From assembly GCA_018052475.1 (NCBI GenBank), contig JAGPNG010000008.1, forward strand, positions 11,885 through 75,884: DNA of 64,000 nt, in the 5' to 3' direction. The notes below the pieces were generated by a model. It saw only the letters and a program-made list of their open reading frames with translations. It did no database searches and had not been told where the DNA came from. Shown in pieces: positions 1 to 12,882 of the stretch. Numbering within the stretch: position 1 is the stretch's first letter; every line of letters starts with the position of its first letter. A program made the position numbers and the translations under genes. Source of the DNA: Candidatus Fermentithermobacillaceae bacterium (GTDB lineage Bacteria; Bacillota; Sulfobacillia; Fermentithermobacillales; Fermentithermobacillaceae).

Positions 1-1
1 G

Positions 2-145
2 GATATGCTCAGAGATGCGCAGAAGAACCCCGACAAATATCGGGACTTGATAGTTCGTGTTGCAGGGTATAGTGATTACTTCTGCGATCTGACGAAAGCA
101 CTGCAAGATGAGATAATCGCTCGAACTGAACATTCGAGCTTCTAG
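2..145 (+). CDS. Glycyl-radical enzyme (PFL superfamily), C-terminal fragment; the 5' part lies outside the window.
   Basis: Frame 2 translates to ...[47 protein letters not shown]. The RVAGYS glycine-radical motif and the DEII(A)RT tail are typical of pyruvate formate-lyase-family C-termini. Stop codon at 143-145. Confidence 0.7.
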
Positions 146-182
146 TTTGTGTGACAGATCGACCTTTGGTTGATCGCTACCA

Positions 183-230
183 AGAGCCTTCCATACGAGA
201 CTGCCGGTCTTGGCGGAAGGCTCTAGTTTT
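183..230 (+). terminator. Candidate intrinsic terminator downstream of the glycyl-radical enzyme gene.
   Basis: Inverted repeat AGAGCCTTCC (183-192) / GGAAGGCTCT (215-224) followed by AGTTTT. The loop is large (22 nt), so this is a weak call. Confidence 0.4.
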
Positions 231-342
231 GAGATACACCTTTTGTGCCTACGCAAAGAGCGACCTTTGCAGGTTAACCAGAGCGTAGGTAGAACTTAAA
301 TGTCTGACGGTTGCGAAAACACATATCAGGGGGAGGAGACAT

Positions 343-1062
343 TTGATAGATAATTTGAGTCCGTTGAGGAAGCCAAATAAGATCACGGAGATAATCACAG
401 ATAAGATTCGGCAGATGATCGAAGAGGGCGTGCTTAAGCCCGGGGACAAACTTCCGACAGAGAAGGAGCTGTGCGAGGGTTTTGGAGTAGGGCGTTCGTC
501 TGTTAGGGAAGCGTTACAAGGTCTCGAGTACATGGGACTAATCGAATCAAGACCGGGGGTAGGCCGTTTCTTGTCATCTGATTCCGATGTCCTTCTCAAA
601 TCCGAGAATTGGAGGTTTACTTTGGACAAAGCCTCGGCCTTTGAGCTTATGGAGGCAAGGCGTATATTGGAAGTTAGCGCTGTCGAGTTGGCCGCGGAAA
701 GAGCTTCAGATGAAGTAATCAAAAGACTCAAGGAACTTTTAGGCGTAATGGAAAAAGTCATGGATAGCGACATGGATCTTTTTTTCGATAAAGAGCTGCA
801 ATTTCACCTTACTCTTGCGGGCGCCTGTCAAAACAGCGTATTGGTAGACCTTATTAACGGAGTGATACACCGAGTCACAAAAGATAGTGAGAGATTCCTA
901 AGGACTTTACCGTACACTTTTTCCCGGACCGTCGAGCAGTTCCAAACTATAGTCCGCGCACTTGAAGAAGGTGACCCGGTTCTTGCAGGACAGAAGATGG
1001 ATGAGCACCTGGATTTGGTGAGATATGCCTTGGGCAAAGACGAAGAAGGCGTAAGCGAGTAA
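343..1062 (+). CDS. GntR-family transcriptional regulator of the FadR/FCD subfamily.
   Basis: N-terminal winged-HTH block KLPTEKELCEGFGVGRSSVREALQGLEYMGLIESRPGVGRF, followed by an alpha-helical FCD-like C-terminal domain. TTG start preceded by the GGGGGAGGAG SD. Confidence 0.85.
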   Translation: MIDNLSPLRKPNKITEIITDKIRQMIEEGVLKPGDKLPTEKELCEGFGVGRSSVREALQGLEYMGLIESRPGVGRFLSSDSDVLLKSENWRFTLDKASAFELMEARRILEVSAVELAAERASDEVIKRLKELLGVMEKVMDSDMDLFFDKELQFHLTLAGACQNSVLVDLINGVIHRVTKDSERFLRTLPYTFSRTVEQFQTIVRALEEGDPVLAGQKMDEHLDLVRYALGKDEEGVSE

Positions 1063-1089
1063 TCCGGGTTCTCTAAAGGAGGGCTTGCA

Positions 1090-2094
1090 ATGAAGTTTTC
1101 GAAGATGATTACCGCGATAGATACGCATACATGCGGTGAGCCCACTCGGATTGTAACCGGCGGAATTGGCCCTATTCCCGGAAGTACGGTGTCTGAAAAG
1201 ATGCTTTACTTCAGGGAAAACATGGACTCTTTGCGCACCATGCTAATGCATGAGCCAAGGGGACACAGCGTCATGTCGGGGGCGATACTGACTGAGCCGT
1301 GCCATAGCGATGCTGATATTGGAGTAATATATCTGGAAACAGGCGGTTATCTTCCCATGTGCGGGCATGATACCATTGGCGTGTGCACAGCCCTTGTGGA
1401 AACGGGAATGGTGAATGTTTCAGAGCCTGTGACCTCTATAACATTGGAGACTCCTGCGGGGTTAGTCCGGGCCAAGGTCAAGGTGAAAGACGGTTCCGCA
1501 GAATCCGTGACTTTTAAGAATACCGAGTCTTTTTTGTATAAGAAAGGACTATGCGTTCACATAGACGGTATCGGAAACGTAGTTACGGATATAGCGTATG
1601 GTGGGAACTTCTATGCAATAGTGGACGCCGGAGATGTTGGGATCAAGATATCGCCTGAGTATTCGGCTGAGATAAAAAGGATTGGCAGCGAGATTAAGAA
1701 ACGTGTGAACCAGGAGATTGAAGTAATACATCCCGAGAAACCCTTTATCAGACAGGTTACCCATGTTTGCTTTAGCGAAAGGATGCACGCGCCTCGGCTT
1801 GGCAGGAAGAATGCGGTGGTCATAACTAACGGTGATATAGATAGGTCGCCATGCGGGACCGGCACATGTGCAGTGCTTTCTAAGATGTATTCTGAAAAAG
1901 AGATCGCGAAAGGGGACGTTTTTCTCAGCGAGAGCATAATTGGCACAAGGTTTTTTGCGTCGGTTGTCGAAGAGTCTTTGATAGGTGGTATCCCTGGAGT
2001 TTTATGCGAAGTGGAAGGCAGGGCTTTCATTACAGGTTTTCATACGTTTGTAGTGGATCCGCAAGATTCCTTGCGGGATGGATTCATGCTCTAG
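1090..2094 (+). CDS. Proline racemase / 4-hydroxyproline 2-epimerase family enzyme with the Cys/Cys catalytic pair.
   Basis: AIDTHTCGEPTRIVTGG N-terminus; catalytic Cys motifs MCGHDTIG and SPCGTGTCA; length 334 aa; AAGGAGGG SD. Confidence 0.85.
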   Translation: MKFSKMITAIDTHTCGEPTRIVTGGIGPIPGSTVSEKMLYFRENMDSLRTMLMHEPRGHSVMSGAILTEPCHSDADIGVIYLETGGYLPMCGHDTIGVCTALVETGMVNVSEPVTSITLETPAGLVRAKVKVKDGSAESVTFKNTESFLYKKGLCVHIDGIGNVVTDIAYGGNFYAIVDAGDVGIKISPEYSAEIKRIGSEIKKRVNQEIEVIHPEKPFIRQVTHVCFSERMHAPRLGRKNAVVITNGDIDRSPCGTGTCAVLSKMYSEKEIAKGDVFLSESIIGTRFFASVVEESLIGGIPGVLCEVEGRAFITGFHTFVVDPQDSLRDGFML

Positions 2095-2135
2095 GAGGCT
2101 CAAGGCTATCTGCAGTACGGAGAGAGGGATAAGAC

Positions 2136-2441
2136 ATGCGAGTAATATCCCATCCTGTGCTTGAAGACATGCAAGGCGCTAAATGGGTAGAGATTACCGT
2201 AGACGGTAGGAAAATAGTGGCACGGCAAGGGGAGAGCATTGCAGCGGCTCTTATGGCGGAAGGCATAAGGACAATGAGGTATACACCAGTAAGGTCCGAG
2301 CCCAGAGGAGTATTTTGCGGGATCGGACAATGTAGTGACTGCATGGTCACGGTAAATGGCGTTCCAAATGTGAGAGCATGTATTACCCCGGTTGAAGAGG
2401 GCATGGTCGTGGAAACCGGAACAGTTCAGCATCGAGGTTAG
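2136..2441 (+). CDS. Small (2Fe-2S)-binding subunit, like the gamma subunit of opine oxidase or D-hydroxyproline dehydrogenase.
   Basis: 101 aa; Cys cluster FCGIGQCSDCMVTVNG...RAC; immediately upstream of the FAD/NAD oxidoreductase gene. Confidence 0.7.
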   Translation: MRVISHPVLEDMQGAKWVEITVDGRKIVARQGESIAAALMAEGIRTMRYTPVRSEPRGVFCGIGQCSDCMVTVNGVPNVRACITPVEEGMVVETGTVQHRG

Positions 2442-2445
2442 AGAG

Positions 2446-3588
2446 ATGTCTCATCAGGTCGATGTTTGTGTGGTAGGTTCGGGCCCCTCTGGTCTTGGGG
2501 CCGCAATAGAATGCGCGAGATACGGTCTTAGCGTCATCGTTTTGGATTCCAATCTTCAAGCAGGCGGTCAGTTGAACAAGCAAATCCACAAGTTTTTCGG
2601 TTCTAGCGCCCACCGAGCGGGTACAAGGGGAATTCTGATAGCCCAAGAGCTTTTGGAGGAAGCCCTAAGTCTCGGCGTTAGGGTATGGCTTGACTCTGAA
2701 GTATACTCCGTTTCAAACGATCTATCCCTTCAGATACTAAAAGGCGTAAGAGCTTCTAAAGTAACGGCTGACCGCGCCGCGCATCCTTGTACCCTTATGT
2801 GCAGATACCTGGTCATAGCAACGGGAGCTTCAGAAAAACCGGCACTGTTCCCCGGTTGGACTCTTCCGGGGGTTATGAGCGCGGGGGCTGTTCAAACCAT
2901 GATGAACTTGGAAAGGGTTTTGCCGGGAAGGAATTTCATCGTTGTAGGCGCAGGGAATGTTGGGCTCATAGTTGCCTATCAACTTCTGCAGGCAGGAGCC
3001 CAAGTGTCATGTGTTGTTGAATCTAATAAAGAGATAGGTGGATATGCCGTACATGCTGCCAAGATAAGGCGGTGTGGAGTTCCTATTCTGACTGAAACTA
3101 CTGTAATACGAGTTTTGGGCATAGACCAGGTAGAAGCAGCAGAAATAGGTAGGATCGGTGCCGATTGGAATGGGAAAGACTCCGCTAGGAAGCGGATTTG
3201 TGTAGACACGGTGTGTATGGCAGTAGGCCTCAAACCGTATGCCAGGCTTGCTTCTTTAGCAGGGTGTGCGTTTGGATATTACCCTCAACTCGGTGGTTGG
3301 GTTCCCCTGCACGACGAGTACATGATGACTACGAAACAAAACGTGTACGTGGTCGGTGATGCTTCCGGCATTGAAGAAGGAGGAATAGCTGAGGATGAAG
3401 GTCGTCTAGCTGGTCTTGATATAGCTCTTAGGGAAAACCCTTGGGAAAGAAACCTGGATTTGAATCGTAACAGGGTGAGAGAAAGACTATGGGAGAATAG
3501 ATCCGGAAAATATATGAGTGATAAAGGTGATGCTAAACGAGATGTAATATCCCGCTGGCACAATCTGTCCGATCCATCGGGACCATAA
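2446..3588 (+). CDS. FAD/NAD(P)-binding pyridine-nucleotide-disulfide-type oxidoreductase, like the alpha subunit of heteromeric proline / D-hydroxyproline dehydrogenase or opine oxidase subunit A.
   Basis: Two Rossmann GxGxxG motifs (VCVVGSGPSGLGAA and FIVVGAGNVGL) and VVGDASG. The start was moved to the ATG at 2446, just after the upstream stop at 2441; the ORF track begins at 2392 inside the previous gene. Confidence 0.75.
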   Translation: MSHQVDVCVVGSGPSGLGAAIECARYGLSVIVLDSNLQAGGQLNKQIHKFFGSSAHRAGTRGILIAQELLEEALSLGVRVWLDSEVYSVSNDLSLQILKGVRASKVTADRAAHPCTLMCRYLVIATGASEKPALFPGWTLPGVMSAGAVQTMMNLERVLPGRNFIVVGAGNVGLIVAYQLLQAGAQVSCVVESNKEIGGYAVHAAKIRRCGVPILTETTVIRVLGIDQVEAAEIGRIGADWNGKDSARKRICVDTVCMAVGLKPYARLASLAGCAFGYYPQLGGWVPLHDEYMMTTKQNVYVVGDASGIEEGGIAEDEGRLAGLDIALRENPWERNLDLNRNRVRERLWENRSGKYMSDKGDAKRDVISRWHNLSDPSGP

Positions 3589-3618
3589 GACGCATTTTGA
3601 CGTTCCCAGTCTGCCATA

Positions 3619-3930
3619 TTGCCCTTTTCTCGTGGGAAAGGAGAGTTGTTTCATTTGGATGATGACGTGGTTGTCTGCAGATGTGAAGAAGTGACCGTTC
3701 GGGATGTGAAAAAGGCAATAGCCGAAGGGGCATTTGATATCGCCGGAGTAAAGCGACGCACAAGAGCGGGAATGGGGATTTGCCAGGGTAGAACATGTGA
3801 AGACCTGATCAGGCAGATTTTGGTTTCTGAACTTGGGATAGAACCCGAAGCGGTATTACCGGATAAGGTCAGGACACCTATATCCCCTGTTACTTTCGAG
3901 ATCCTATCCGGTGGTGGAGCCCATGAATGA
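3619..3930 (+). CDS. BFD-like [2Fe-2S]-binding domain protein.
   Basis: VVCRCEEVTVRDVKKAI ... GICQGRTCEDLI, the classic BFD-like CxC...CxxC pattern. The exact start is uncertain because no good SD precedes the 3619 ATG. Confidence 0.65.
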   Translation: MPFSRGKGELFHLDDDVVVCRCEEVTVRDVKKAIAEGAFDIAGVKRRTRAGMGICQGRTCEDLIRQILVSELGIEPEAVLPDKVRTPISPVTFEILSGGGAHE

Positions 3931-5092
3931 GGTTTGCGACGTCGTGGTAGTCGGCTGTGGCGTGATAGGTGCAGCCATAACATATTACTTATCGGCAGCC
4001 GGTATGAAAGTGATCGCCGTGGACAGGTCGGACATAGCTTCCGGTACGTCATCGGCTTGTGACGGGAATATACTTGCAATAGACAAAGAGCCTGGTTTTG
4101 ACTCAAGAATGGCTCTTGAAAGCCAAAAACTCTTCGAGACGCTTGAAAAGGAGCTTTCGTTTGATTTGGAATACAGGCATCTTGGGAGCACTTTGGCTGT
4201 AGAGGACGAATATCAAGTAGAGCAAGCTGCCGAATGGGAAAAAGCCATGAGGGAGTCAGGGCTTGATGTCAGATTGATAGGCCCGTCAGACGTGCACTCA
4301 TACGAACCTATGATAGCCGAGGATGTCCTTGGACTTTTGGAGTGTGCTTCTGACGCTTCACTAAACCCCATAGCGTTGGTCCGCGCTTATGTACTTGCAG
4401 CTAGAGGAAATGGGGCGGTCATAGAGGAGTTTACCGGGGTTAAGGACATCTTGGTTACCGCTGACGGTCGTGTTGCGGGAGTTGAGACTGATTTGGGCAA
4501 AATACTTGCGCCATTCGTGGTATTGGCCGCAGGGGTCTGGACTCCCGAGATAGCTAAAAGGTGCGGCATTTGCATTCCGATCCTGCCTCGAAAGGGCCAT
4601 ATTATTGTATCCGAAAGGACTTTTAGAGTTGGCAGTAGGAAGATCCAGGAATTTGGGTATCTGATGGCAAAATTCGGAACAAGAGATAGACGCGGCGTAG
4701 ATAGTGAAACAGAGCAATACGGCATAGCCATGGTATTTGAACCTACCCCCCACGGCAACTTCCTTATAGGCTCAAGTAGAGAGTTTGTGGGATTTGATAC
4801 TTCCTGTAACACGAAAGTTGTAGCGCTCATGGCAAAACGAGCCATGAGGTTCTTCCCTTGCATCAAGGACATTAGAGTTATAAGGACATATGCAGGGCTC
4901 AGGCCCTACACACCTGATCATCGCCCTATAATCTCCGAGGTAGACGGCATTTCAGGTTTGTATGTTGCTTCGGGTCACGAAGGCGATGGGATAGGGTTAG
5001 CTCCTATCACAGGTGTTTTGGTGCGTGACATGGTTCTTAAGCGACCTTCGCAGATACCCCTAGAACCCCTTAGTTTGAGAAGATTTGCATAG
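3923..5092 (+). CDS. FAD-dependent oxidoreductase of the DAO family, like the beta subunit of D-proline / D-hydroxyproline dehydrogenase or sarcosine oxidase beta.
   Basis: N-terminal dinucleotide-binding motif CDVVVVGCGVIGAAITYYLSAAGMKVIAVDR, and a C-terminal SGHEGDGIGLAP motif typical of the DAO family. Overlaps the upstream gene's end, suggesting translational coupling. Confidence 0.8.
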   Translation: MNEVCDVVVVGCGVIGAAITYYLSAAGMKVIAVDRSDIASGTSSACDGNILAIDKEPGFDSRMALESQKLFETLEKELSFDLEYRHLGSTLAVEDEYQVEQAAEWEKAMRESGLDVRLIGPSDVHSYEPMIAEDVLGLLECASDASLNPIALVRAYVLAARGNGAVIEEFTGVKDILVTADGRVAGVETDLGKILAPFVVLAAGVWTPEIAKRCGICIPILPRKGHIIVSERTFRVGSRKIQEFGYLMAKFGTRDRRGVDSETEQYGIAMVFEPTPHGNFLIGSSREFVGFDTSCNTKVVALMAKRAMRFFPCIKDIRVIRTYAGLRPYTPDHRPIISEVDGISGLYVASGHEGDGIGLAPITGVLVRDMVLKRPSQIPLEPLSLRRFA

Positions 5093-5259
5093 AAACAAAT
5101 CTCGTAGAACTTCTGAGATAACATTTCACAAAAGCAGGAGTTTTCTTGGCTATGGAGAACCTCCTTAATATGTATAGACATCAGACAATCTGATCGGAAT
5201 CGGAATGGGTGTACTTCTGCCCTCGTTGCGCATTAGCTCAATCAAGGAGGCGGTTGGAA

Positions 5260-6918
5260 ATGGGTGAGAGAGATAGCGTTAAGCTGGTCCAATTGTACAG
5301 AGATTTTGACGAAAGATGTGCTACTTGTCTTGATCAGATAAAAAGCACCAGAAGATACGAAAAGCAGTTGTATGTACCTTCTGAGGAAACTCGAAAAAAG
5401 GCCGAGAGGGCCCTACAAGAACTCTTGGCTGAGGCCGGCGAACTAGAGGCGCCTGATGTTGTTTTTGAGATACTCAAGAACCATTTTGACGAGTTCATTC
5501 GCGAGCAAATGTCCCATCTCAGGAGAATGTTTGCCGGACCCAGTTCTTTTATCAGCGGAATATCGAACACAATTGACTACTACTCAAGGAAAGACTCACG
5601 TAGCAGTTCAGAAAGAGCAGAGATCCTTCTAAGTAGGTTGAACAACATAGACGCGGTTTGGTCGGGCGTAAGAAAACTTCTTCCCTCTACTGCGATAGAT
5701 GAAGTATCACAGATGTCAGATGTATGTGACACTCTTTCCACAGTAGCAAAAAAGATGGTCTCTAGGGTTCCCGAACTATATAGCGGTATGTCAGAAAAAC
5801 TCGTTCAGGAAGTACAGTCAGAGTTAGAACGGGTATCTGAACGGGCAAAGGGCTGGGAACAAGAGGTAAAGGAATTTGTGGAATCAAGAAAGAGTGGTTC
5901 CGGACACAAGGAAGTAGTATCGGAGAGGGATCCCATTGAAGAATACAGGTACCTACTCTTAAATCAGTTTGGAGTGGACCTAGACCAGATCTTATCCTGG
6001 CATGAGGAAGAAATCGAAAAGACCAGATCTGAGATGTTCGAAATCGCTAATCGTATTAACGTTCCGGGGTTGCCAAAGGTAGATTCAGTAGAAGATGTGG
6101 TAGATATATTGAACAAGTTCGAGGGCCCGTGTGACGAGCCCGACGAGATGTTCGTTAGGATGAGAGATTATCTAGACAGGGCTCAAAAGGCTACGCGCGA
6201 GTTTGTGAAGCTCCCGGAAGAAAGTGTCGTGGTGGTTCCTACGCCGGATACCCTCGTCAAGCACTATCCTTGGGGAGGATACGGAGGAGGCTGTCCCAGG
6301 AGAAGGCCTCTTCAGGGCGAAACATTCCTTAACGTTGAGAACTACAAAGCTGTAACCGACGGCTGGATCAGGATGAATTCGGTACATGAATGCTATCCAG
6401 GGCATCACGTTCAGTGGGTACGATCGGTGCTAGATCCTCTTCCTGAGACCGTTAAGGTCGGTGCTCGCGGGGTTCCGACTTTGGAGGGCAGCGCACATAG
6501 GTCGGAACGTCTCATGGAATTCATCTATCCAGACGATCCATTCTATCCGCTATTTGTGGCCTATAGGCGTCACCATACCTCGGTGCGGATAAAAGCAGAT
6601 TTGTGGCTCAGGTACTTTGGGCGTCCCTTTGACGATGTGGTCGATCTATATGTCCAAGAGCTTGGCTTTGAAAGGAAAGTTGCATCGGGTCAAGTGTTGG
6701 CTCAAAACCTCATGAAGGGCTATTTCACCTGTTATTACTATGGAATGAAACGTTTGACAGACCTTGAGCGGCAACTGGGATACAACCAGAAAGATTTCAC
6801 CGAACTGATTTTTTCCTTGCCAAGGGTTAGCCTCAAGACTATGGAAGAATTCTTGAAACTAAGCGAGCCTGATAAGTCTAGATTGCTAACTGAGTTTCCT
6901 AGCAAGGTAACACTCTAG
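5260..6918 (+). CDS. Uncharacterised conserved protein, paralog A; a putative metal-dependent hydrolase.
   Basis: 552 aa from the ATG at 5260, which has a strong AGGAGG SD 12 nt upstream. Conserved blocks shared with the 8289-9968 paralog: YPWGGYGGGCPRRRPL, HECYPGHHVQWVR, DDPFYPL, YRRHHTSVRIKADL, GYFTCYYYGMK. Confidence 0.8.
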   Translation: MGERDSVKLVQLYRDFDERCATCLDQIKSTRRYEKQLYVPSEETRKKAERALQELLAEAGELEAPDVVFEILKNHFDEFIREQMSHLRRMFAGPSSFISGISNTIDYYSRKDSRSSSERAEILLSRLNNIDAVWSGVRKLLPSTAIDEVSQMSDVCDTLSTVAKKMVSRVPELYSGMSEKLVQEVQSELERVSERAKGWEQEVKEFVESRKSGSGHKEVVSERDPIEEYRYLLLNQFGVDLDQILSWHEEEIEKTRSEMFEIANRINVPGLPKVDSVEDVVDILNKFEGPCDEPDEMFVRMRDYLDRAQKATREFVKLPEESVVVVPTPDTLVKHYPWGGYGGGCPRRRPLQGETFLNVENYKAVTDGWIRMNSVHECYPGHHVQWVRSVLDPLPETVKVGARGVPTLEGSAHRSERLMEFIYPDDPFYPLFVAYRRHHTSVRIKADLWLRYFGRPFDDVVDLYVQELGFERKVASGQVLAQNLMKGYFTCYYYGMKRLTDLERQLGYNQKDFTELIFSLPRVSLKTMEEFLKLSEPDKSRLLTEFPSKVTL

Positions 6919-7017
6919 GGAACGAAGGTGAATTCTCTTTCAAAGAAGAATGTATTTGATGGTACCTGATGGATGTTGGCCAAGTTCTTGCTCAAAGAAA
7001 GGAGACTGAACGTAACT

Positions 7018-8211
7018 ATGCGCAAGTTTCGTGTTTCTCCGGAGGAATTCAAGAGGCGGACTGACGTTGTACTCGAAGAAATGAAGGGTAAGGATATTAA
7101 GGGCTTTGTGTTTTGGAGTTCGGTCAGTATTTTTTATCTTTCCGGGTTTGCGTTTATACCGACAGAAAGACCGCTTTGCCTCATCTTGTCGCAAGATGGC
7201 AAAAAAACGATTTTTGGGCCCAGATTGGAGCTTGAGCATGCCCGAGAATGCCCTGAGGTAGCGGATATAAAGACATATCCCGACTATCCGGGTAAAACGC
7301 ATCCAATGAAGCAGTTGGGAAAACTTTTAGAAGAGATGGGTTTAGGTACGGGTAAAATCGGAAGCGACGGAGGCGGATATGCATCGTCTTCGGGCTATCG
7401 GGGACCCAAGCTGTCTGAAGTCTTGCCTTCGGCGGAGATACTCATAGATCCCTATCTTATAGAGAATATGAGAATGGTTAAGTCCAAAGAGGAGATCTTA
7501 CTCATCAAGGAAAGCTGCAGATGGGGGAATCTTGCTCACAAGTTCCTACAGCTTTACTCAAAACCCGGAGCCTACGAGAACGAGATTTCGGCCAGAGCTT
7601 CCCTAGAAGCCACGCTAGCCATGATTAACACCTTGGGGCCGCTGTATGATCCGACCACCATAGGGCGCGGCGGCGCTAGCGCCGGTTTTAGAGGGCAAAT
7701 TGGGCCTAACTCGGCTTTGCCTCACGCCATGTCGATAAATGCGGTCCTTAAGCCCGGGGATGTTTTGGTTACAGGTGCGGGTGCGGGAGTTTTTGGATAT
7801 AACAGTGAGCTGGAAAGGACTATGTTTGTAGGTGAACCCGACGATGAGAAGAAAAAGTACTTTGACTTGATGATGCAGGCACAACAAGTGGCTTTTGATA
7901 ACATAAAGCCGGGCCGCAAGTGCTCTGAGGTTGATGCGGCTGTGTCCGCTTTCTATGAGAAGCACAGTCTTTGGGACTACTGGAGACATCACACGGGCCA
8001 CGCTCTTGGCTTACTTGGTCATGAGGCACCTTTCTTCGATGTAGCAGATGACACCGTAATCAAGCCCGGAATGGTGTTTAGCGTTGAACCGGGGCTTTAC
8101 GTGATGGGTCTTGGAGGCTTTAGGCATTCCGACACTATATTGGTTACCGAAACCGGTATCGAAATGCTCACCTACTATCCGAGAGATTTGGAGTCTCTTA
8201 TCTGCGGATGA
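7018..8211 (+). CDS. Xaa-Pro aminopeptidase/dipeptidase, peptidase family M24B.
   Basis: M24 pita-bread signature HHTGHALGLLGHEAPF plus metal ligands (D..D..H..E..E pattern). The start was set at the ATG at 7018 (MRKFRVSPEEF), which has an AAGGAG SD. Confidence 0.85.
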   Translation: MRKFRVSPEEFKRRTDVVLEEMKGKDIKGFVFWSSVSIFYLSGFAFIPTERPLCLILSQDGKKTIFGPRLELEHARECPEVADIKTYPDYPGKTHPMKQLGKLLEEMGLGTGKIGSDGGGYASSSGYRGPKLSEVLPSAEILIDPYLIENMRMVKSKEEILLIKESCRWGNLAHKFLQLYSKPGAYENEISARASLEATLAMINTLGPLYDPTTIGRGGASAGFRGQIGPNSALPHAMSINAVLKPGDVLVTGAGAGVFGYNSELERTMFVGEPDDEKKKYFDLMMQAQQVAFDNIKPGRKCSEVDAAVSAFYEKHSLWDYWRHHTGHALGLLGHEAPFFDVADDTVIKPGMVFSVEPGLYVMGLGGFRHSDTILVTETGIEMLTYYPRDLESLICG

Positions 8212-8235
8212 TTCAGTAACTGTGGCAAGAACGAA

Positions 8236-8278
8236 GGAGCAGGGGCTATCAGACAGAAAAGGTCCCTGCTCCTTTTTT
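8236..8278. terminator. Bidirectional intrinsic terminator between convergent genes.
   Basis: GGAGCAGGGG (8236-8245) / CCCTGCTCC (8264-8272) stem followed by TTTTTT (8273-8278). It lies between the 3' ends of the M24 peptidase (+) and paralog B (-). Confidence 0.7.
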
Positions 8279-8288
8279 GGAATGTGGA

Positions 8289-9968
8289 TTACCTATATTC
8301 AAGTTTGCTTGGAAAACCAGTCAGCAGTCTTGTTTTGTCTTGGTCGCTTAGAGTCAGAAACGCCTCGAAGTTGGATAGGCTCACATATGGCAAAGAGAAT
8401 AAGTATTCGGTGAAGGTTTTCCTATCATATCCATATCGTAGCTCCATATCCTCGAGTTTTTTCATCCCATAGTAATAACAGGTGAAGTAACCGATTCTGT
8501 TTTGAGGAAGTTGAGATACGGCTTGCCCTTTGGCGGTTTGATAATCGAAACCTAACTCGTCCATATATAACTTTATGGCATCTTCTAGTGGGCGGCCGAA
8601 ATACTGCATGTAAAGGTCGGCTTTGATCCTGACGGAAGTATGGTGACGCCTATAGGTCACCGCGAGCGGATAGAAAGGATCGTCATCATATATGTACTCC
8701 ATGAGTCTTTCTGTTCGATGACACATGCCTTCTTCCATTGGCACTCTCTTTGCGCCTAACTTCATGGTTTCGGGAAGCGGATCAAGGGTTGTGCGGACCC
8801 ACTGTACATGGTGGCCGGGGTAACATTCGTGCACTGCGTTTATCTTAATCCACCCGTCTGTGACTGCACGGTAGTTTGTGTCATTTAGAAACACTTCGCC
8901 GAGAAGAGGCCTTCTTCTTGGGCACCCGCCGCCATAGCCTCCCCAAGGGTACGTCTCCCTGCATTGTTCATACACAGGGACAACCCTGCAATCTTCTTCA
9001 GGCATGTTAACCCAGTCCCGACACGCTTTCTTGGCTCTGGCTAAATACTTCTTCATCCGGTCGAACATCTCAGTAGGGGAGGCAGCCGGTCCGGCGTACT
9101 TATTCATGATTTCAACTGCGTCAAGGGGCCCTTTTACCACAACGCCCGGAAGATCAAGGTGTGCGGCCGTTTCCACAAACTCCGCCCGGGTCTTTTCCAC
9201 TTCTTCCTCGTACCAATTTAACAATTCGTCTAGACTGACCCCTAGTTCTGTCTCCAAAACAGATCTATACCGTTCGGGACCGGCAGTAGCTATTTTGCCC
9301 TTGTCTTCTTTGTCGGGACGGTTTTCCAAGAGACTTTCTATCTCTTGCGCCCATCTGGAGCTTTTGGCTGCAAAGGTATCCAGCGCGTAAAGGATCTTTT
9401 CCATATCGCCTGCCGATAGACCTTGATACTCTTCTTTAGCCTTAGACTTTTCGATGCTTGCGACTCGAGCCAATAGCGAAGAAGCCGAGCTTGCTTCAAC
9501 AAGTTGAGCGCGCGGACTCGTTTCAAGGATATCTCGAAGCGCAGACCATAACTCGTCCAATAGATCGATTCTTGCCAGCAAGATCTCTAATCGGATTTGT
9601 GGTGGTCTTGAATCTTGACTTCCGAGGAACGTTAGCGAGTGAGTAAGCGACGATATGAACGCAGACGGATACTCGTACATGCCATCTAGATTAGATTTCT
9701 GCCCCTCTATGAAGTCTATTATGTGGCTCCTGAGAAGAGCAAAAACAGGGTCGGGCGCGGCACAGAGGTATGCTTCATGCAATATGTTATCCAATTCCTT
9801 CTCCTCGCGCTGTTTGGCTTCTTTCGTTGGAATGAACAGGTTCATTTCATAGTCGCGGTTATTGCGCAGTCTATCAGATTGAAGGCCGCACCGGTAATCC
9901 AGGTCAATATAGCTTTGGCGAAGATTAGACATGTCCTGGGAACTGTTCTTTCGGTTCAAATGCATCAT
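8289..9968 (-). CDS. Uncharacterised conserved protein, paralog B of 5260-6918.
   Basis: 559 aa; it aligns along its whole length with paralog A, including ETYPWGGYGGGCPRRRPL, AVHECYPGHHVQWVRT, YRRHHTSVRIKADL and GYFTCYYYGMKKL. The start could be one of the adjacent ATGs at 9968 or 9965, downstream of a GAGGTGG SD. Confidence 0.8.
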   Translation of the reverse strand: MMHLNRKNSSQDMSNLRQSYIDLDYRCGLQSDRLRNNRDYEMNLFIPTKEAKQREEKELDNILHEAYLCAAPDPVFALLRSHIIDFIEGQKSNLDGMYEYPSAFISSLTHSLTFLGSQDSRPPQIRLEILLARIDLLDELWSALRDILETSPRAQLVEASSASSLLARVASIEKSKAKEEYQGLSAGDMEKILYALDTFAAKSSRWAQEIESLLENRPDKEDKGKIATAGPERYRSVLETELGVSLDELLNWYEEEVEKTRAEFVETAAHLDLPGVVVKGPLDAVEIMNKYAGPAASPTEMFDRMKKYLARAKKACRDWVNMPEEDCRVVPVYEQCRETYPWGGYGGGCPRRRPLLGEVFLNDTNYRAVTDGWIKINAVHECYPGHHVQWVRTTLDPLPETMKLGAKRVPMEEGMCHRTERLMEYIYDDDPFYPLAVTYRRHHTSVRIKADLYMQYFGRPLEDAIKLYMDELGFDYQTAKGQAVSQLPQNRIGYFTCYYYGMKKLEDMELRYGYDRKTFTEYLFSLPYVSLSNFEAFLTLSDQDKTRLLTGFPSKLEYR

Positions 9969-10148
9969 CCCACCTCAGATTAGTTTTTCTGTCTCTTGCG
10001 ATGAAGTCTTTTGTATGACGAATATGAGAACTTTGTCATATCATCAGACATCAATCTACGAATTCTACATTGAGATTCGGAACCCTCTTTTGAGGAGTAA
10101 ACTCTTGCAAAGTTATATGTTTTATCGCTAGATGGTAGAATAGAGGAG

Positions 10149-11708
10149 ATGACGAATCCGGGGGTGAGACTAGCGTTGGATACAGTCGTTTACAAGGTAG
10201 ACCCTTTGCACCCTGATGAAGAGATAATCTCCAAATGCGCAGAGGTGATTTTGCGGGGGGGCCTGGTAGCGTTTCCCACTGAGACAGTCTATGGGATCGG
10301 CGGAAACGGTCTCGATCCGGTTGCTGTAGCAAAGATATTCGAGGCTAAAGGGAGGCCCCCAGATAACCCGCTGATACTGCACGTTTCGCGGCCCGAAAGC
10401 GTTGAGGCGTTAGTCGAGGAGATTCCGCCGGAAGCGGTCAGATTAATGGAGATGTTCTGGCCCGGTCCTCTTACGCTTATTCTTCCTAAATCTCATCTGG
10501 TGCCTTCAATAGTTACCGGAGGTTTGCCTACTGTGGCAGTCAGGATGCCGGATCATCCTGTAGCGCAGAAACTCATTGATGCTTGCGGCGTACCATTGGC
10601 AGCTCCCTCTGCGAATATATCGGGAAGACCCAGCGCTACGTCTGCTGAAGACGTGTTGGCGGATTTAAACGGCAAAGTGGATATCATTCTTGATGCAGGA
10701 CCTACTGAAATTGGCATAGAGTCGACGTTGGTGGATCTTTCTGGCGATGTTCCCAGAGTGAACAGACCCGGTGGATTGAACCTACAGAGCATTAGGGAGG
10801 TTCTTGAGACTGCCGATGTCGCTCCTCAGCCAAAATATAGACATTATGTTCCTGACAGTGACCTTTATCTTGTCACCGGTGATTTGATGCAACAGAGAAG
10901 AAAGTCGATATTCCATGCGATAAGGTTCATTGGTTCAGGTAAGAAAGTAGTCATTTTGGCGTCTGACGAAAATGCGCCGTTTTATGTTCCGTTCCAGAAG
11001 GTATTTGGCGATGACCGTATGCAGGTGATACCGCTGGGTTCCAGATGCGATCTTTCACCTGTAGCCGCAAAACTGTATTCAAGCCTTAGGCGCGCTTCAA
11101 ATGAATTGGGCGCAGATGTAATCTTATCGGAAACATTTCCCGAAGAAGGCATCGGTTTTGCCATTTCCAACAGATTAGAAATGGCAAGCGAAGGCAGGGT
11201 AGTCCCTTGGTTCGACTCGGCGTCAGACTATCAGCCCGCGCCACTTGCGATACTCATGGTCTGCTCCGGAAATACATGCAGAAGCCCAATGGCGGAAGGG
11301 CTTCTTAGGCGTCTGTGGAAAGATATAGGTGAGCCATATCCCATTCATGTTGCATCTGCCGGTGTATCGGCTATACCGGGGCTTCCGGCGTCGAGAGAGG
11401 CGATAGAAGTTATGGCCAAAAGAGGGGTAGACCTTTCATACCATAGGTCTAAGGCTTTAGAAATTGAAGATGTAAAAAGGGCAGATCTGGTTATAACGAT
11501 GACAAAGGCGCACAAAGCGGTCTTGGTATTGAGTTACCCTGAATTCTCTCACAAAGTGTTTACCCTATCGGAGATGATTTCTGATAGGGATTTAAGCGAT
11601 GTCCCTGATCCTTTTGGACAAGATTTGGAGATGTATGAGCGTACGGCAGATCTTCTCGAACAAAGCCTCCTGGTATTGGCAAAGAGGTTGGCGGGGTTGG
11701 ACGTTTGA
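10149..11708 (+). CDS. Fusion protein: L-threonylcarbamoyladenylate synthase (TsaC/Sua5/YwlC type) fused to a low-molecular-weight protein (Tyr/Arg) phosphatase (YwlE-like).
   Basis: N-terminal YrdC domain (GGLVAFPTETVYGIGGN, ILHVS) and a Sua5-type middle domain. The C-terminal approximately 160 aa begin ILMVCSGNTCRSPMAEGL, which is the CX4CR(S/T) P-loop of LMW-PTP / arginine phosphatase. A single uninterrupted 519-aa ORF. Confidence 0.8.
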   Translation: MTNPGVRLALDTVVYKVDPLHPDEEIISKCAEVILRGGLVAFPTETVYGIGGNGLDPVAVAKIFEAKGRPPDNPLILHVSRPESVEALVEEIPPEAVRLMEMFWPGPLTLILPKSHLVPSIVTGGLPTVAVRMPDHPVAQKLIDACGVPLAAPSANISGRPSATSAEDVLADLNGKVDIILDAGPTEIGIESTLVDLSGDVPRVNRPGGLNLQSIREVLETADVAPQPKYRHYVPDSDLYLVTGDLMQQRRKSIFHAIRFIGSGKKVVILASDENAPFYVPFQKVFGDDRMQVIPLGSRCDLSPVAAKLYSSLRRASNELGADVILSETFPEEGIGFAISNRLEMASEGRVVPWFDSASDYQPAPLAILMVCSGNTCRSPMAEGLLRRLWKDIGEPYPIHVASAGVSAIPGLPASREAIEVMAKRGVDLSYHRSKALEIEDVKRADLVITMTKAHKAVLVLSYPEFSHKVFTLSEMISDRDLSDVPDPFGQDLEMYERTADLLEQSLLVLAKRLAGLDV

Positions 11709-11727
11709 GAACAAAGGGTGTGAGGGT

Positions 11728-12882
11728 ATGAGACAGTTAAATGAGAGAGATCTCGTTGCTGCGGTTTGGGGCGGGGCGGTTTTGGGGGGCGGCGGAGGTG
11801 GTTCGCCTGAAGCAGGTTACCGCCTTGGGAAAAAAGGTTTGGAGATTGGGCGCGTGCTTTTGGCCGACGTAGACGAACTAGATGCTGATGACCTAGTCGT
11901 AACAGCGGGTTTGGTAGGTTCTCCAAAGAAAGGCGGCCTTGGACCTGCAGCCGAATCTTACGTAGATGCCTTTTCTTTTTTCCGACATGTCACAGGGGCA
12001 AGGATTTCTGCTATAAACTCTAACGAGTGCGGAGGTCTTGCAACTGTGAACGGGTGGCTTCAAGCTGCAGGTCTGGGCGTTCCGGTTCTGGATGCCCCGT
12101 GCAATGGGCGCGCTCATCCTACTGCCCTTATGGGAGCTATGGGATTGCACAAAGATCCGTCATATGTATCGAAGCAGGTGGCAATAGGAGATGGATCTCG
12201 GATGTATGTAGAGGGTCCGCTTGGGGATGCGTCTTCAATGGTTAGAGAGTTTTCCAAAAAAGACGGTCTTGTGGCAGTAGCCAGAAATCCTGTTAGCATC
12301 GGCTATGTGAAGCGAAATGCAGCATGTGGCGGAATATCAAAATGCATTGACCTTGGCTATGCAATGGCAGCTCATGTTCAAGAAGAACTAGGTTTTGATC
12401 CGCTTAAGCCTCAATACGTTGGAGGGTCACGAGAGTACCCTTTGGCCGGGTATTTTGCGTCGAGCATGGCTGCGATGGTGCTCGGTGGGGTGATTACCCT
12501 GATGGGCCAGGTAAAGGCGGTAGACATATCTACAAGAGGCGGTTTTGACGTAGGAGAGGTTGAGGTGGCATCTTTCGAGACTAAAAACGGCAACGGAACT
12601 ACTGCGCATTTAACTTTCATGAACGAGTATCTATCATATGGCCTAAAGGGGCATGTCATATTCAGTTTCCCTGACTTGGTTGCAGTGATGGATATGCATA
12701 CGGGGTGGCCTATATCCTCTGCGGACATAAAAGAGGGTATGGAGGTCATCGTTTTCGGTGTCCCATCAGATAATTTGATACTTGGGGCAGGCATGTATGA
12801 TAAAGAACTTTACAAGCCTCTTGAGGAGGCGACAGCCTTAACTTTTAACCTTCCTGTTTCAAAGAGGAGGTCAGACACATGA
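11728..12882 (+). CDS. Conserved hypothetical protein of unknown function, with a Gly-rich motif; possibly a DUF917 / S-Me-THD-like fold.
   Basis: 384 aa from the ATG at 11728, which has an SD GAGGGT; MRQLNERDLVAAVWGGAVLGGGGGGSPEAGY... I do not recognise a characterised family. The stop overlaps the rpiB start (ATGA). Confidence 0.7.
   Translation: MRQLNERDLVAAVWGGAVLGGGGGGSPEAGYRLGKKGLEIGRVLLADVDELDADDLVVTAGLVGSPKKGGLGPAAESYVDAFSFFRHVTGARISAINSNECGGLATVNGWLQAAGLGVPVLDAPCNGRAHPTALMGAMGLHKDPSYVSKQVAIGDGSRMYVEGPLGDASSMVREFSKKDGLVAVARNPVSIGYVKRNAACGGISKCIDLGYAMAAHVQEELGFDPLKPQYVGGSREYPLAGYFASSMAAMVLGGVITLMGQVKAVDISTRGGFDVGEVEVASFETKNGNGTTAHLTFMNEYLSYGLKGHVIFSFPDLVAVMDMHTGWPISSADIKEGMEVIVFGVPSDNLILGAGMYDKELYKPLEEATALTFNLPVSKRRSDT

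Follow-up and report, generated by a model that had tools for sequence, protein, structure and literature searches.

The 64,000-nucleotide window analysed in this study, positions 11,885 to 75,884 of contig JAGPNG010000008.1 from a Candidatus Fermentithermobacillaceae bacterium (assembly GCA_018052475.1), carries two paralogous genes of the DUF885 family that converge on either side of a gene with an M24 peptidase domain. The first paralogue, DUF885-A (hereafter A), occupies 5260-6918 on the plus strand and encodes 552 residues from the ATG at 5260, which is the start used by public gene calls and is preceded at the proper distance by AAGGAGG, with a GTG at 5209 as the alternative. The second, DUF885-B (hereafter B), occupies 8289-9968 on the minus strand and encodes 559 residues, or 558 from the second methionine, as in the public annotation. 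The gene between them (7018-8211, plus strand) encodes a hydrolase of the Creatinase_N plus Peptidase_M24 architecture, called variant M24 below on account of its altered metal site. From 5' to 3', the locus comprises genes for a glycyl radical enzyme activase, a 786-residue glycyl radical enzyme (HypD), a GntR/FCD regulator, a Pro_racemase-family protein, Fer2_4, Pyr_redox_2, BFD-like 2Fe-2S and DAO proteins, A, variant M24, B (reversed) and a Sua5-LMWPc fusion. The source contig reaches upstream of the window and is referred to as L001, in which window position 1 is position 4742. In a sister species (L175/L176) the whole arrangement from hypD to B is kept with 85-92% amino-acid identity, and the B orthologue (85% identity) stands at the equivalent position. 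The ratios of nonsynonymous to synonymous substitution rates (dN/dS) against this species are 0.04 for A, 0.05 for B and 0.02 for the variant M24, values that are approximate since dS is saturated; A, the M24 gene and B are under strong purifying selection.

The similarity between A and B is far beyond chance. A BLASTP alignment of the two proteins runs from end to end with 267/550 identities (49%), 68% positives, 7 gaps and E = 0, and five blocks are identical in both, YPWGGYGGGCPRRRPL, VHECYPGHHVQWVR, DDPFYPL, YRRHHTSVRIKADL and GYFTCYYYGMK[RK]L, as a first-pass annotation of the window had described. Both proteins exceed the gathering score of 32.4 bits of Pfam PF05960 (DUF885), A with 118.9 bits (positions 13-513 of the 532-position profile) and B with 94.3 bits (positions 65-496), and the family is thus already known, though uncharacterised; the public annotation already names each a 'DUF885 family protein'. 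The first-pass annotation, which had been unable to place the pair in a characterised enzyme family and had recorded a vague impression of DUF885, was right in both respects: NCBIfam contains no model matching A or B, the literature found on DUF885 mentions the family with no biochemistry or activity for any member, and searches with the PDB codes and accessions of the solved members returned nothing beyond a survey of zinc geometry and a note on a fungal gene cluster. A sequence search of the PDB gave weak matches (E 1e-4 to 1e-7) limited to DUF885 structural-genomics entries.

A and B, in which neither a signal peptide nor a transmembrane segment was found, are cytoplasmic proteins and fall in a small subclade of DUF885 whose members come mostly from Bacillota. 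A whole-library HMMER search among 1.84 billion sequences returned 265 cluster representatives with E <= 1e-3, of which 75 had E <= 1e-30, followed by a gap before the ordinary DUF885 proteins, which align with ~25-28% identity over the C-terminal half only; this gap marks the subclade as small and distinct. Distance clustering of about 100 homologues separated at least eight clades at roughly 50% identity, with A-type and B-type proteins in different clades; in other metagenome-assembled genomes (MAGs), the orthologues of A are 59-96% identical to it and those of B 57-94%. Two or three subfamily paralogues, in places side by side (L085), coexist in several genomes. The duplication that gave rise to A and B is old, which points to divergent substrate preferences and not to a recent tandem copying event. 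A heterodimer of A and B is conceivable, no evidence for or against it having been found.

AlphaFold2 gave a confident model of A from 22 homologues, with a predicted local distance difference test score (pLDDT) of 93.6 and a predicted template-modelling score (pTM) of 0.92. The model has the fold of the solved DUF885 members and resembles characterised gluzincins of the Peptidase_MA clan, the fold class to which DUF885 belongs. The elements of the model follow the zincin order: after a three-stranded sheet (residues 321-357), one helix has H376-E377 at its end and, past a short break at Y-P-G, another begins with H382-H383; E409 and E416 are borne by a long helix further on (405-418). Conservation was assessed over 59 diverse full-length representatives with 27-46% identity to A, the numbering of which is used throughout. 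H376, E377, G381, H382, E409, E416, R436 and R443 are invariant in all 59, and Y379, P380, H383, G410, R414, Y492 and G495 are kept in at least 55; P337 (58/59), W338 (50/59) and G339 (53/59) lie on or before the edge strand. The DUF885 motifs H-E-x-x-P-G-H-[HY]-x-Q and E-G-x-A-x-x-x-E are found in both A and B, and align with PDB entries 3u24, 3iuk and 3o0y.

The arrangement H376-E-C-Y-P-G-H382-H383 is not a canonical HExxH motif, as the spacing is 6-7 residues instead of 4 and the predicted helix is broken at Y-P-G. The first-pass annotation had pointed to a non-canonical metal site made of a His/Glu/Cys/His cluster, and the non-canonical histidines and glutamate of this proposal are retained by the invariance of H376, E377, G381 and H382, but its cysteine is not: among the 59 relatives, 23 have Ala at position 378 and 22 have Cys, and a Cys ligand in 'HEC', and with it the cluster as such, was rejected. 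The likely site, judged from the pattern of invariant residues, consists of a His-His-Glu metal site plus a catalytic Glu within an extended HE-x4-H motif, with E409 and E416, both on helix 405-418, as the candidates for the third-ligand Glu. Stretched zincin motifs have an active precedent, since the metallopeptidases MATCAP/TMCP and DPP III use HExxxH, and TMCP provides its third ligand from an 'EEG' element (PMC10499314). Two further blocks that had been expected to be conserved among homologues behave differently. 'CPRRRP' is confined to the close clade, its C345 being Asp in 24 and Cys in 13 of the 59 and mostly Asp outside that clade, with R347-R349 also variable, and was discarded as a family-wide site; in 'RRHH', R436 is invariant and H438 is kept in only about half of the relatives.

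The product of the middle gene matches PF00557 (Peptidase_M24) with 142.8 bits and PF01321 (Creatinase_N) with 47.9 bits, and its AlphaFold2 model (pLDDT 89.9) retrieves prolidases in Foldseek with E down to 1e-32. Prolidases and creatinases together give template-modelling scores (TM-scores) of 0.73-0.86, the best being those with creatinases (0.83-0.86), and all NCBIfam equivalog scores are far under their cut-offs. When aligned to Pyrococcus furiosus prolidase (PDB entry 1pv9), the metal ligands D209, D220, H284, E313 and E327 correspond to G253, E264, H328, E357 and S371. The gene had been labelled a Xaa-Pro peptidase, a label that the alignment does not sustain: two of the five canonical M24 ligands are replaced, so that the protein, with G/E/H/E/S instead of D/D/H/E/E, is not a standard prolidase or Xaa-Pro dipeptidase. 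These changes do not represent decay, because they are conserved in the 120 closest homologues, in which position 253 is Gly in 110 and Tyr in 8, the E, H, E and S are kept in 120/120, and H370 and D372 around S371 are also invariant. The chemistry of the variant M24 could be mononuclear or metal-independent; a literature search on metal-independent M24 enzymes found nothing useful. The M24 genes beside DUF885 in other aligned loci encode canonical DDHEE enzymes, with the exception of one locus (L093) that carries the variant subfamily. An obligate partnership between the variant and DUF885 was considered; the variant is found with DUF885 in only two lineages, and on its own in a sporulation/housekeeping region (L094).

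The 77-nucleotide spacer between the M24 gene and B folds with -33.1 kcal/mol (z = -3.97; none of 200 shuffled sequences folds equally well) and contains, at 8234-8280, a G+C-rich hairpin of ~13 bp followed by T6 on the plus strand. This hairpin is the intrinsic terminator of the A-M24 transcript and was missed by a simple terminator scan because its loop is long; it was the folding of the spacer that revealed it. It may also halt the convergent B transcript, but the T-run on the minus strand is weaker (TTCGTTCTT), so that a bidirectional terminator is plausible but less strong. Of the arrangement described in the first-pass annotation, the M24-domain gene between the paralogues and the terminator are therefore present, and it is the shared use of the latter that is less certain. 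Rfam gave no match in positions 1-12000, and there is accordingly no riboswitch or leader in the 168-nucleotide gap 5' of A.

The proline/hydroxyproline module that had been noted upstream of A is also present, and it is extended by hypD. The first 145 nucleotides of the window (1-145, plus strand) are the 3' end of the gene for the glycyl radical enzyme trans-4-hydroxy-L-proline dehydratase: the full gene, L001:2526-4883, scores 1413.7 bits on the NCBIfam equivalog model for HypD (NF043068), whose cut-off is 1100, and tblastn places HypD residues 740-786 at window positions 2-142, with the remainder upstream of the window. Just upstream of hypD on the same contig lies its radical-SAM activase (region L001:1506-4886), which scores 409 against the cut-off of 425 for NF043069 and falls narrowly under it. 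Within the window, hypD is followed on the plus strand by a GntR/FCD-family transcription regulator (343-1062; Pfam GntR and FCD), likely the local regulator, homologues of which with 51-57% identity adjoin DUF885 genes in L085 and L093. The next gene (1090-2094, plus strand; Pfam Pro_racemase 383.8 bits) encodes an enzyme of the proline racemase/4-hydroxyproline 2-epimerase family; C91 (in CGH) and C255 (in DRSPCGT) are both present, which identifies it as the Cys/Cys racemase/epimerase type, and its best NCBIfam models, proline racemase and 4-hydroxyproline epimerase, are both under cut-off. The four plus-strand genes at 2136-5092, which are defined by Pfam/NCBIfam matches and the L001 gene calls as Fer2_4 (2136-2441), Pyr_redox_2 (2446-3588), BFD-like 2Fe-2S (3655-3930) and DAO (3923-5092), appear from their domains to encode a heterotetrameric amino-acid oxidase or dehydrogenase with flavin and iron-sulfur centres, of the sarcosine-oxidase, HcnABC or D-hydroxyproline-dehydrogenase type, acting perhaps on D-Pro, D-Hyp or another substrate. 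The same Fer2_4/Pyr_redox_2/BFD/DAO set occurs in L084 and L085 with an additional 4Fe-4S ferredoxin gene.

On the far side of B, a single open reading frame (10149-11708) encodes a Sua5/TsaC threonylcarbamoyl-AMP synthase (Sua5_yciO_yrdC and Sua5_C) fused to a low-molecular-weight phosphotyrosine phosphatase domain, a fusion that is kept in the sister species (L175). It is followed at 11728-12882 by an S-Me-THD/DUF917-family gene, located between the fusion and rpiB/DUF436, for which the best NCBIfam models are thiohydantoin desulfurases at ~200 bits, well under their cut-offs of 440-450.

The gene neighbourhoods of the subclade were compared using twelve Pfam-annotated contig look-ups (eleven queries with subfamily DUF885 proteins and two with variant-M24 homologues) and a tblastn panel on genome and metagenome loci. 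The resulting set consists of 29 independent subfamily loci, each 5 kb or longer, and is compared with a control of 103 loci of distant DUF885 genes. A hypD gene is a neighbour in 7/29 subfamily loci and in 0/103 controls, an M24 gene in 9/29 and 0/103, a Pro_racemase-family gene in 3/29 and 0/103, and a four-gene cassette containing DUF6754 in 6/29 and 0/103; at least two components of an Opp oligopeptide transporter are present in 10/29 and 16/103. At least one gene of the panel, which comprises hypD, M24, Opp, the DUF6754 cassette and Pro_racemase as well as an S9 peptidase or a prolidase-like amidohydrolase, is found in 20/29 subfamily loci as compared with 18/103 controls. When six neighbouring glycyl radical enzymes from other loci were scored on the NCBIfam HypD equivalog, five exceeded the 1100-bit cut-off and one, a partial sequence, reached 1097. 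The first-pass annotation had predicted a linkage to peptidase and proline-metabolism genes, and such a linkage does recur among the homologues, but linkage to proline/hydroxyproline (Pro/Hyp) genes is confined to a minority of loci, and the idea that it is universal was rejected.

The composition of individual loci illustrates this linkage. A Dethiosulfatibacter MAG (L087) contains two M24 genes, OppABCDF and DUF885, followed by the activase and hypD; L096 combines hypD, OppABCDF and DUF885; in L098 and L105 the activase and hypD directly follow DUF885; and L091 contains Opp, two amidohydrolases, M24, M32 and DUF885. L093 comprises hypD, a trans-3-Hyp-dehydratase-like gene, an OCD-family reductase, an S9 peptidase, the variant M24 located 16 bp upstream of DUF885, a GntR gene, the DUF6754 cassette and an SNF symporter. 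In this locus a canonical M24 directly after hypD (L093:2159-3237) is called as two open reading frames, a Creatinase_N part of 188 residues and a Peptidase_M24 part of 173 residues, which is possibly a frameshift or a pseudogene; the variant M24 beside DUF885 is intact. L085, L005 and L006 contain an amidohydrolase whose best match is the Xaa-Pro dipeptidase model NF051886; for the amidohydrolase that goes with the DUF6754 cassette, this match is under cut-off.

The DUF6754 cassette combines DUF6754 with three membrane proteins that carry no annotation (about 204, 281 and 198 residues), and was observed in six independent loci: L001:1-1312 (upstream of the window), L093:14377-17241, L085:9821-12701, L088:4903-7788, L089:4733-7854 and L006:4404-7273. 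It takes the place held by OppABCDF in other loci and may therefore be an undescribed transporter. Neither an NCBIfam model for the cassette nor literature on DUF6754 was found.

Taking these observations together, A and B may be a pair of cytoplasmic, mononuclear metallopeptidases, likely carboxy- or oligopeptidases, that trim imported Pro/Hyp-rich peptides for HypD and the racemase/oxidase module, a reading to which we give about even confidence. It is drawn by analogy with structural relatives as regards metal binding and peptidase chemistry, and from the neighbouring genes as regards Pro/Hyp specificity; a dedicated hydrolase pair for collagen-like peptides, as the first-pass annotation put it, is likewise what we infer rather than observe. 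In such a scheme, short Pro/Hyp-rich peptides would be imported via Opp-type or DUF6754-cassette transporters. Each of A and B would hold one catalytic metal ion, probably Zn(II), bound by H376 and H382 of H-E-x-Y-P-G-H-H and by E409 on the next long helix; E377 would act as the general base that activates water, Y492 (or Y379 or H383) would stabilise the tetrahedral intermediate, and the invariant R436 and R443 together with R414 could grip the substrate by its C-terminal carboxylate. The N-terminal half, which is all-helical, would shut over the site, so that only short peptides would fit, as in the structural relatives, the M32 carboxypeptidases, MATCAP and the M3/M2 oligopeptidases. Cleavage would most likely occur from the C-terminus or on di- or tripeptides, with A and B acting beside M24-fold hydrolases and the two paralogues probably differing in substrate preference, and the freed Hyp and Pro would pass to HypD and to the racemase/oxidase module encoded just upstream.

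Several observations weigh against this scheme. No DUF885 member has a published activity, so that the case for peptidase chemistry is drawn from fold and motif; no characterised precedent was found for the HE-x4-H spacing; E409 was preferred over E416 as the putative ligand by analogy; and an hhalign comparison with an M32 enzyme gave a probability of 6.6%, aligning only the GYFTCYYYG region. The partner M24 protein lacks two canonical metal ligands, and its own status as a peptidase is uncertain. As for the neighbourhoods, 9/29 loci, L086 and L090 among them, have no neighbours related to peptides or Pro/Hyp, and hypD is present in only 7; the controls belong to other phyla, where hypD is mostly absent, and the contrast with them therefore overstates specificity; and the Opp counts include generic ABC-ATPase cross-matches, to which the 16/103 in the controls testify.

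The neighbourhoods could also be explained if A and B were general cytoplasmic oligopeptidases or carboxypeptidases with no Pro/Hyp preference, the adjacency of hypD reflecting a general clustering of peptide-catabolism genes. We regard this explanation as possible but doubtful. Many loci carry only general peptide genes, such as OppBCDF alone in L011, L015 and L108, and M14, M20 and M28 peptidases are found in L089 and M32 with amidohydrolases in L091; hypD is absent from 22/29 loci, and the presence of two or three paralogues per genome from at least eight clades is usual for broad peptidase families. However, hypD is a single-copy and uncommon gene, and it lies within 10 kb of the DUF885 gene in 7/29 loci from several clades (43-78% identity range), whereas ~0.2 such loci would be expected by chance (an estimate for 20 kb per locus and a ~3-Mb genome). 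Further Pro/Hyp-specific neighbours, namely the Pro_racemase family, OCD, the Xaa-Pro-dipeptidase-like amidohydrolase and M24, also fit a general oligopeptidase poorly.

The variant M24 gives rise to another explanation, in which A and B are metal-dependent amidohydrolases that act on a non-peptide or modified Pro/Hyp compound (an N-acyl, N-carbamoyl or amidino derivative, or a cyclic dipeptide) in series with a creatinase-like variant M24. The altered metal site of this adjacent protein, conserved as it is in the 120 closest homologues, points away from ordinary dipeptide hydrolysis, and its model is closest, by TM-score, to the creatinases; related loci (L085, L091) contain genes of the creatininase family and for amidohydrolases, and a non-peptide substrate would be compatible with DUF885 having stayed uncharacterised. 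Nevertheless, we consider such a role unlikely, as all of the characterised structural relatives are peptidases, oligopeptide transporters and M24 peptidases of the canonical DDHEE type are the commonest neighbours, and the variant M24 keeps company with DUF885 in just the two lineages and stands alone in the housekeeping region of L094. Some M24 and zincin relatives are pseudoenzymes, and EBP1, an example, is among the NCBIfam matches; together with a motif that differs from canonical HExxH, this raises the question of whether A and B are non-catalytic proteins that retain the zincin fold for binding, chaperone or regulatory purposes. This is very improbable, because the set H, E, H, E, E never varies among 59 relatives with 27-46% identity, selection is strongly purifying, and the neighbours are enzymes and transporters rather than regulatory partners.

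The reading of A and B as Pro/Hyp peptidases can be carried one step further. X-Hyp and Pro-Hyp bonds resist ordinary peptidases, and the subclade might represent the missing bacterial enzyme that cleaves X-Hyp or Pro-Hyp, or releases C-terminal Hyp or Pro, by means of a hitherto uncharacterised HE-x4-H zinc site, forming with the variant M24 and a DUF6754 importer in place of Opp an unrecognised system of collagen-peptide utilisation in anaerobic Bacillota that supplies HypD. This extension is speculative and, in our estimation, much more likely to be wrong than right. The literature searched on HypD does not mention DUF885. Within the literature searched, what is new is the functional hypothesis based on gene neighbourhood and the residue map; A and B form a divergent cytoplasmic subclade and not a new family. 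Three crystal structures exist for DUF885, a large family for which the subclade supplies a testable context of peptide import, M24 hydrolases and HypD. If the proposal is true, it would provide the first function for DUF885, would add the HE-x4-H variant to the known zincin motifs, and would describe a route by which anaerobes free hydroxyproline from collagen peptides, the step before HypD-dependent Hyp fermentation; work on C. difficile and commensal Clostridia treats this fermentation as a factor in gut nutrient competition. Should the prediction fail, A and B will be two more annotated 'DUF885 family proteins'.

Focusing on the known systems, the closest comparison is with the solved DUF885 proteins from Arthrobacter aurescens (3IUK), Colwellia psychrerythraea (3O0Y) and Shewanella oneidensis (3U24), which belong to the same PF05960 family and have in common with A and B the HE..PGH[HY].Q and EG.A...E motifs, the Arg of 'vRl..D' and the C-terminal Tyr-Gly region. 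The sequence identity is only 13-18%, however, the blocks PWGGY.GG and R436-R437-x-H439 are specific to the subclade and absent from the solved proteins, and 3O0Y and 3U24 carry a lipoprotein annotation; A and B, by contrast, lack both a signal peptide and a transmembrane segment.

The M32 metallocarboxypeptidases (Taq, PfuCP and BsuCP type) are, like A and B, cytoplasmic and of similar size, and an M32 gene adjoins a subfamily member in L091. A G-Y-F-x-x-Y-x-x-G element near the C-terminus is possibly common to both, although the hhalign comparison is not significant. M32 enzymes have a canonical HExxH, whereas A and B have HE-x4-H; the M32 profile PF02074 gave no match for either protein at E <= 1, so that neither was placed in M32, and the M32 signatures HPF, HESQ, IRxxAD and GxxQDxHW were not seen in the translations, at which no dedicated scan was aimed.

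MATCAP/TMCP (KIAA0895L), a proven metallocarboxypeptidase (PMC10499314), resembles A and B in having a zincin motif that is likewise stretched and a third-ligand element of Glu-Gly type ('EEG' in MATCAP and 'EG' in A and B). The spacing differs, being HExxxH in MATCAP and HExxxxH in A and B; MATCAP is eukaryotic and acts on an unrelated substrate, the tubulin tail, and the structural match covers only the catalytic half with 11-12% identity. Finally, prolidase (M24B) and creatinase have the same Creatinase_N and Peptidase_M24 domains and the same pita-bread fold as the middle gene product, in which the prolidase His and Glu ligands are retained as H328 and E357, whereas D209, D220 and E327 correspond to G, E and S and an invariant His370 is added.

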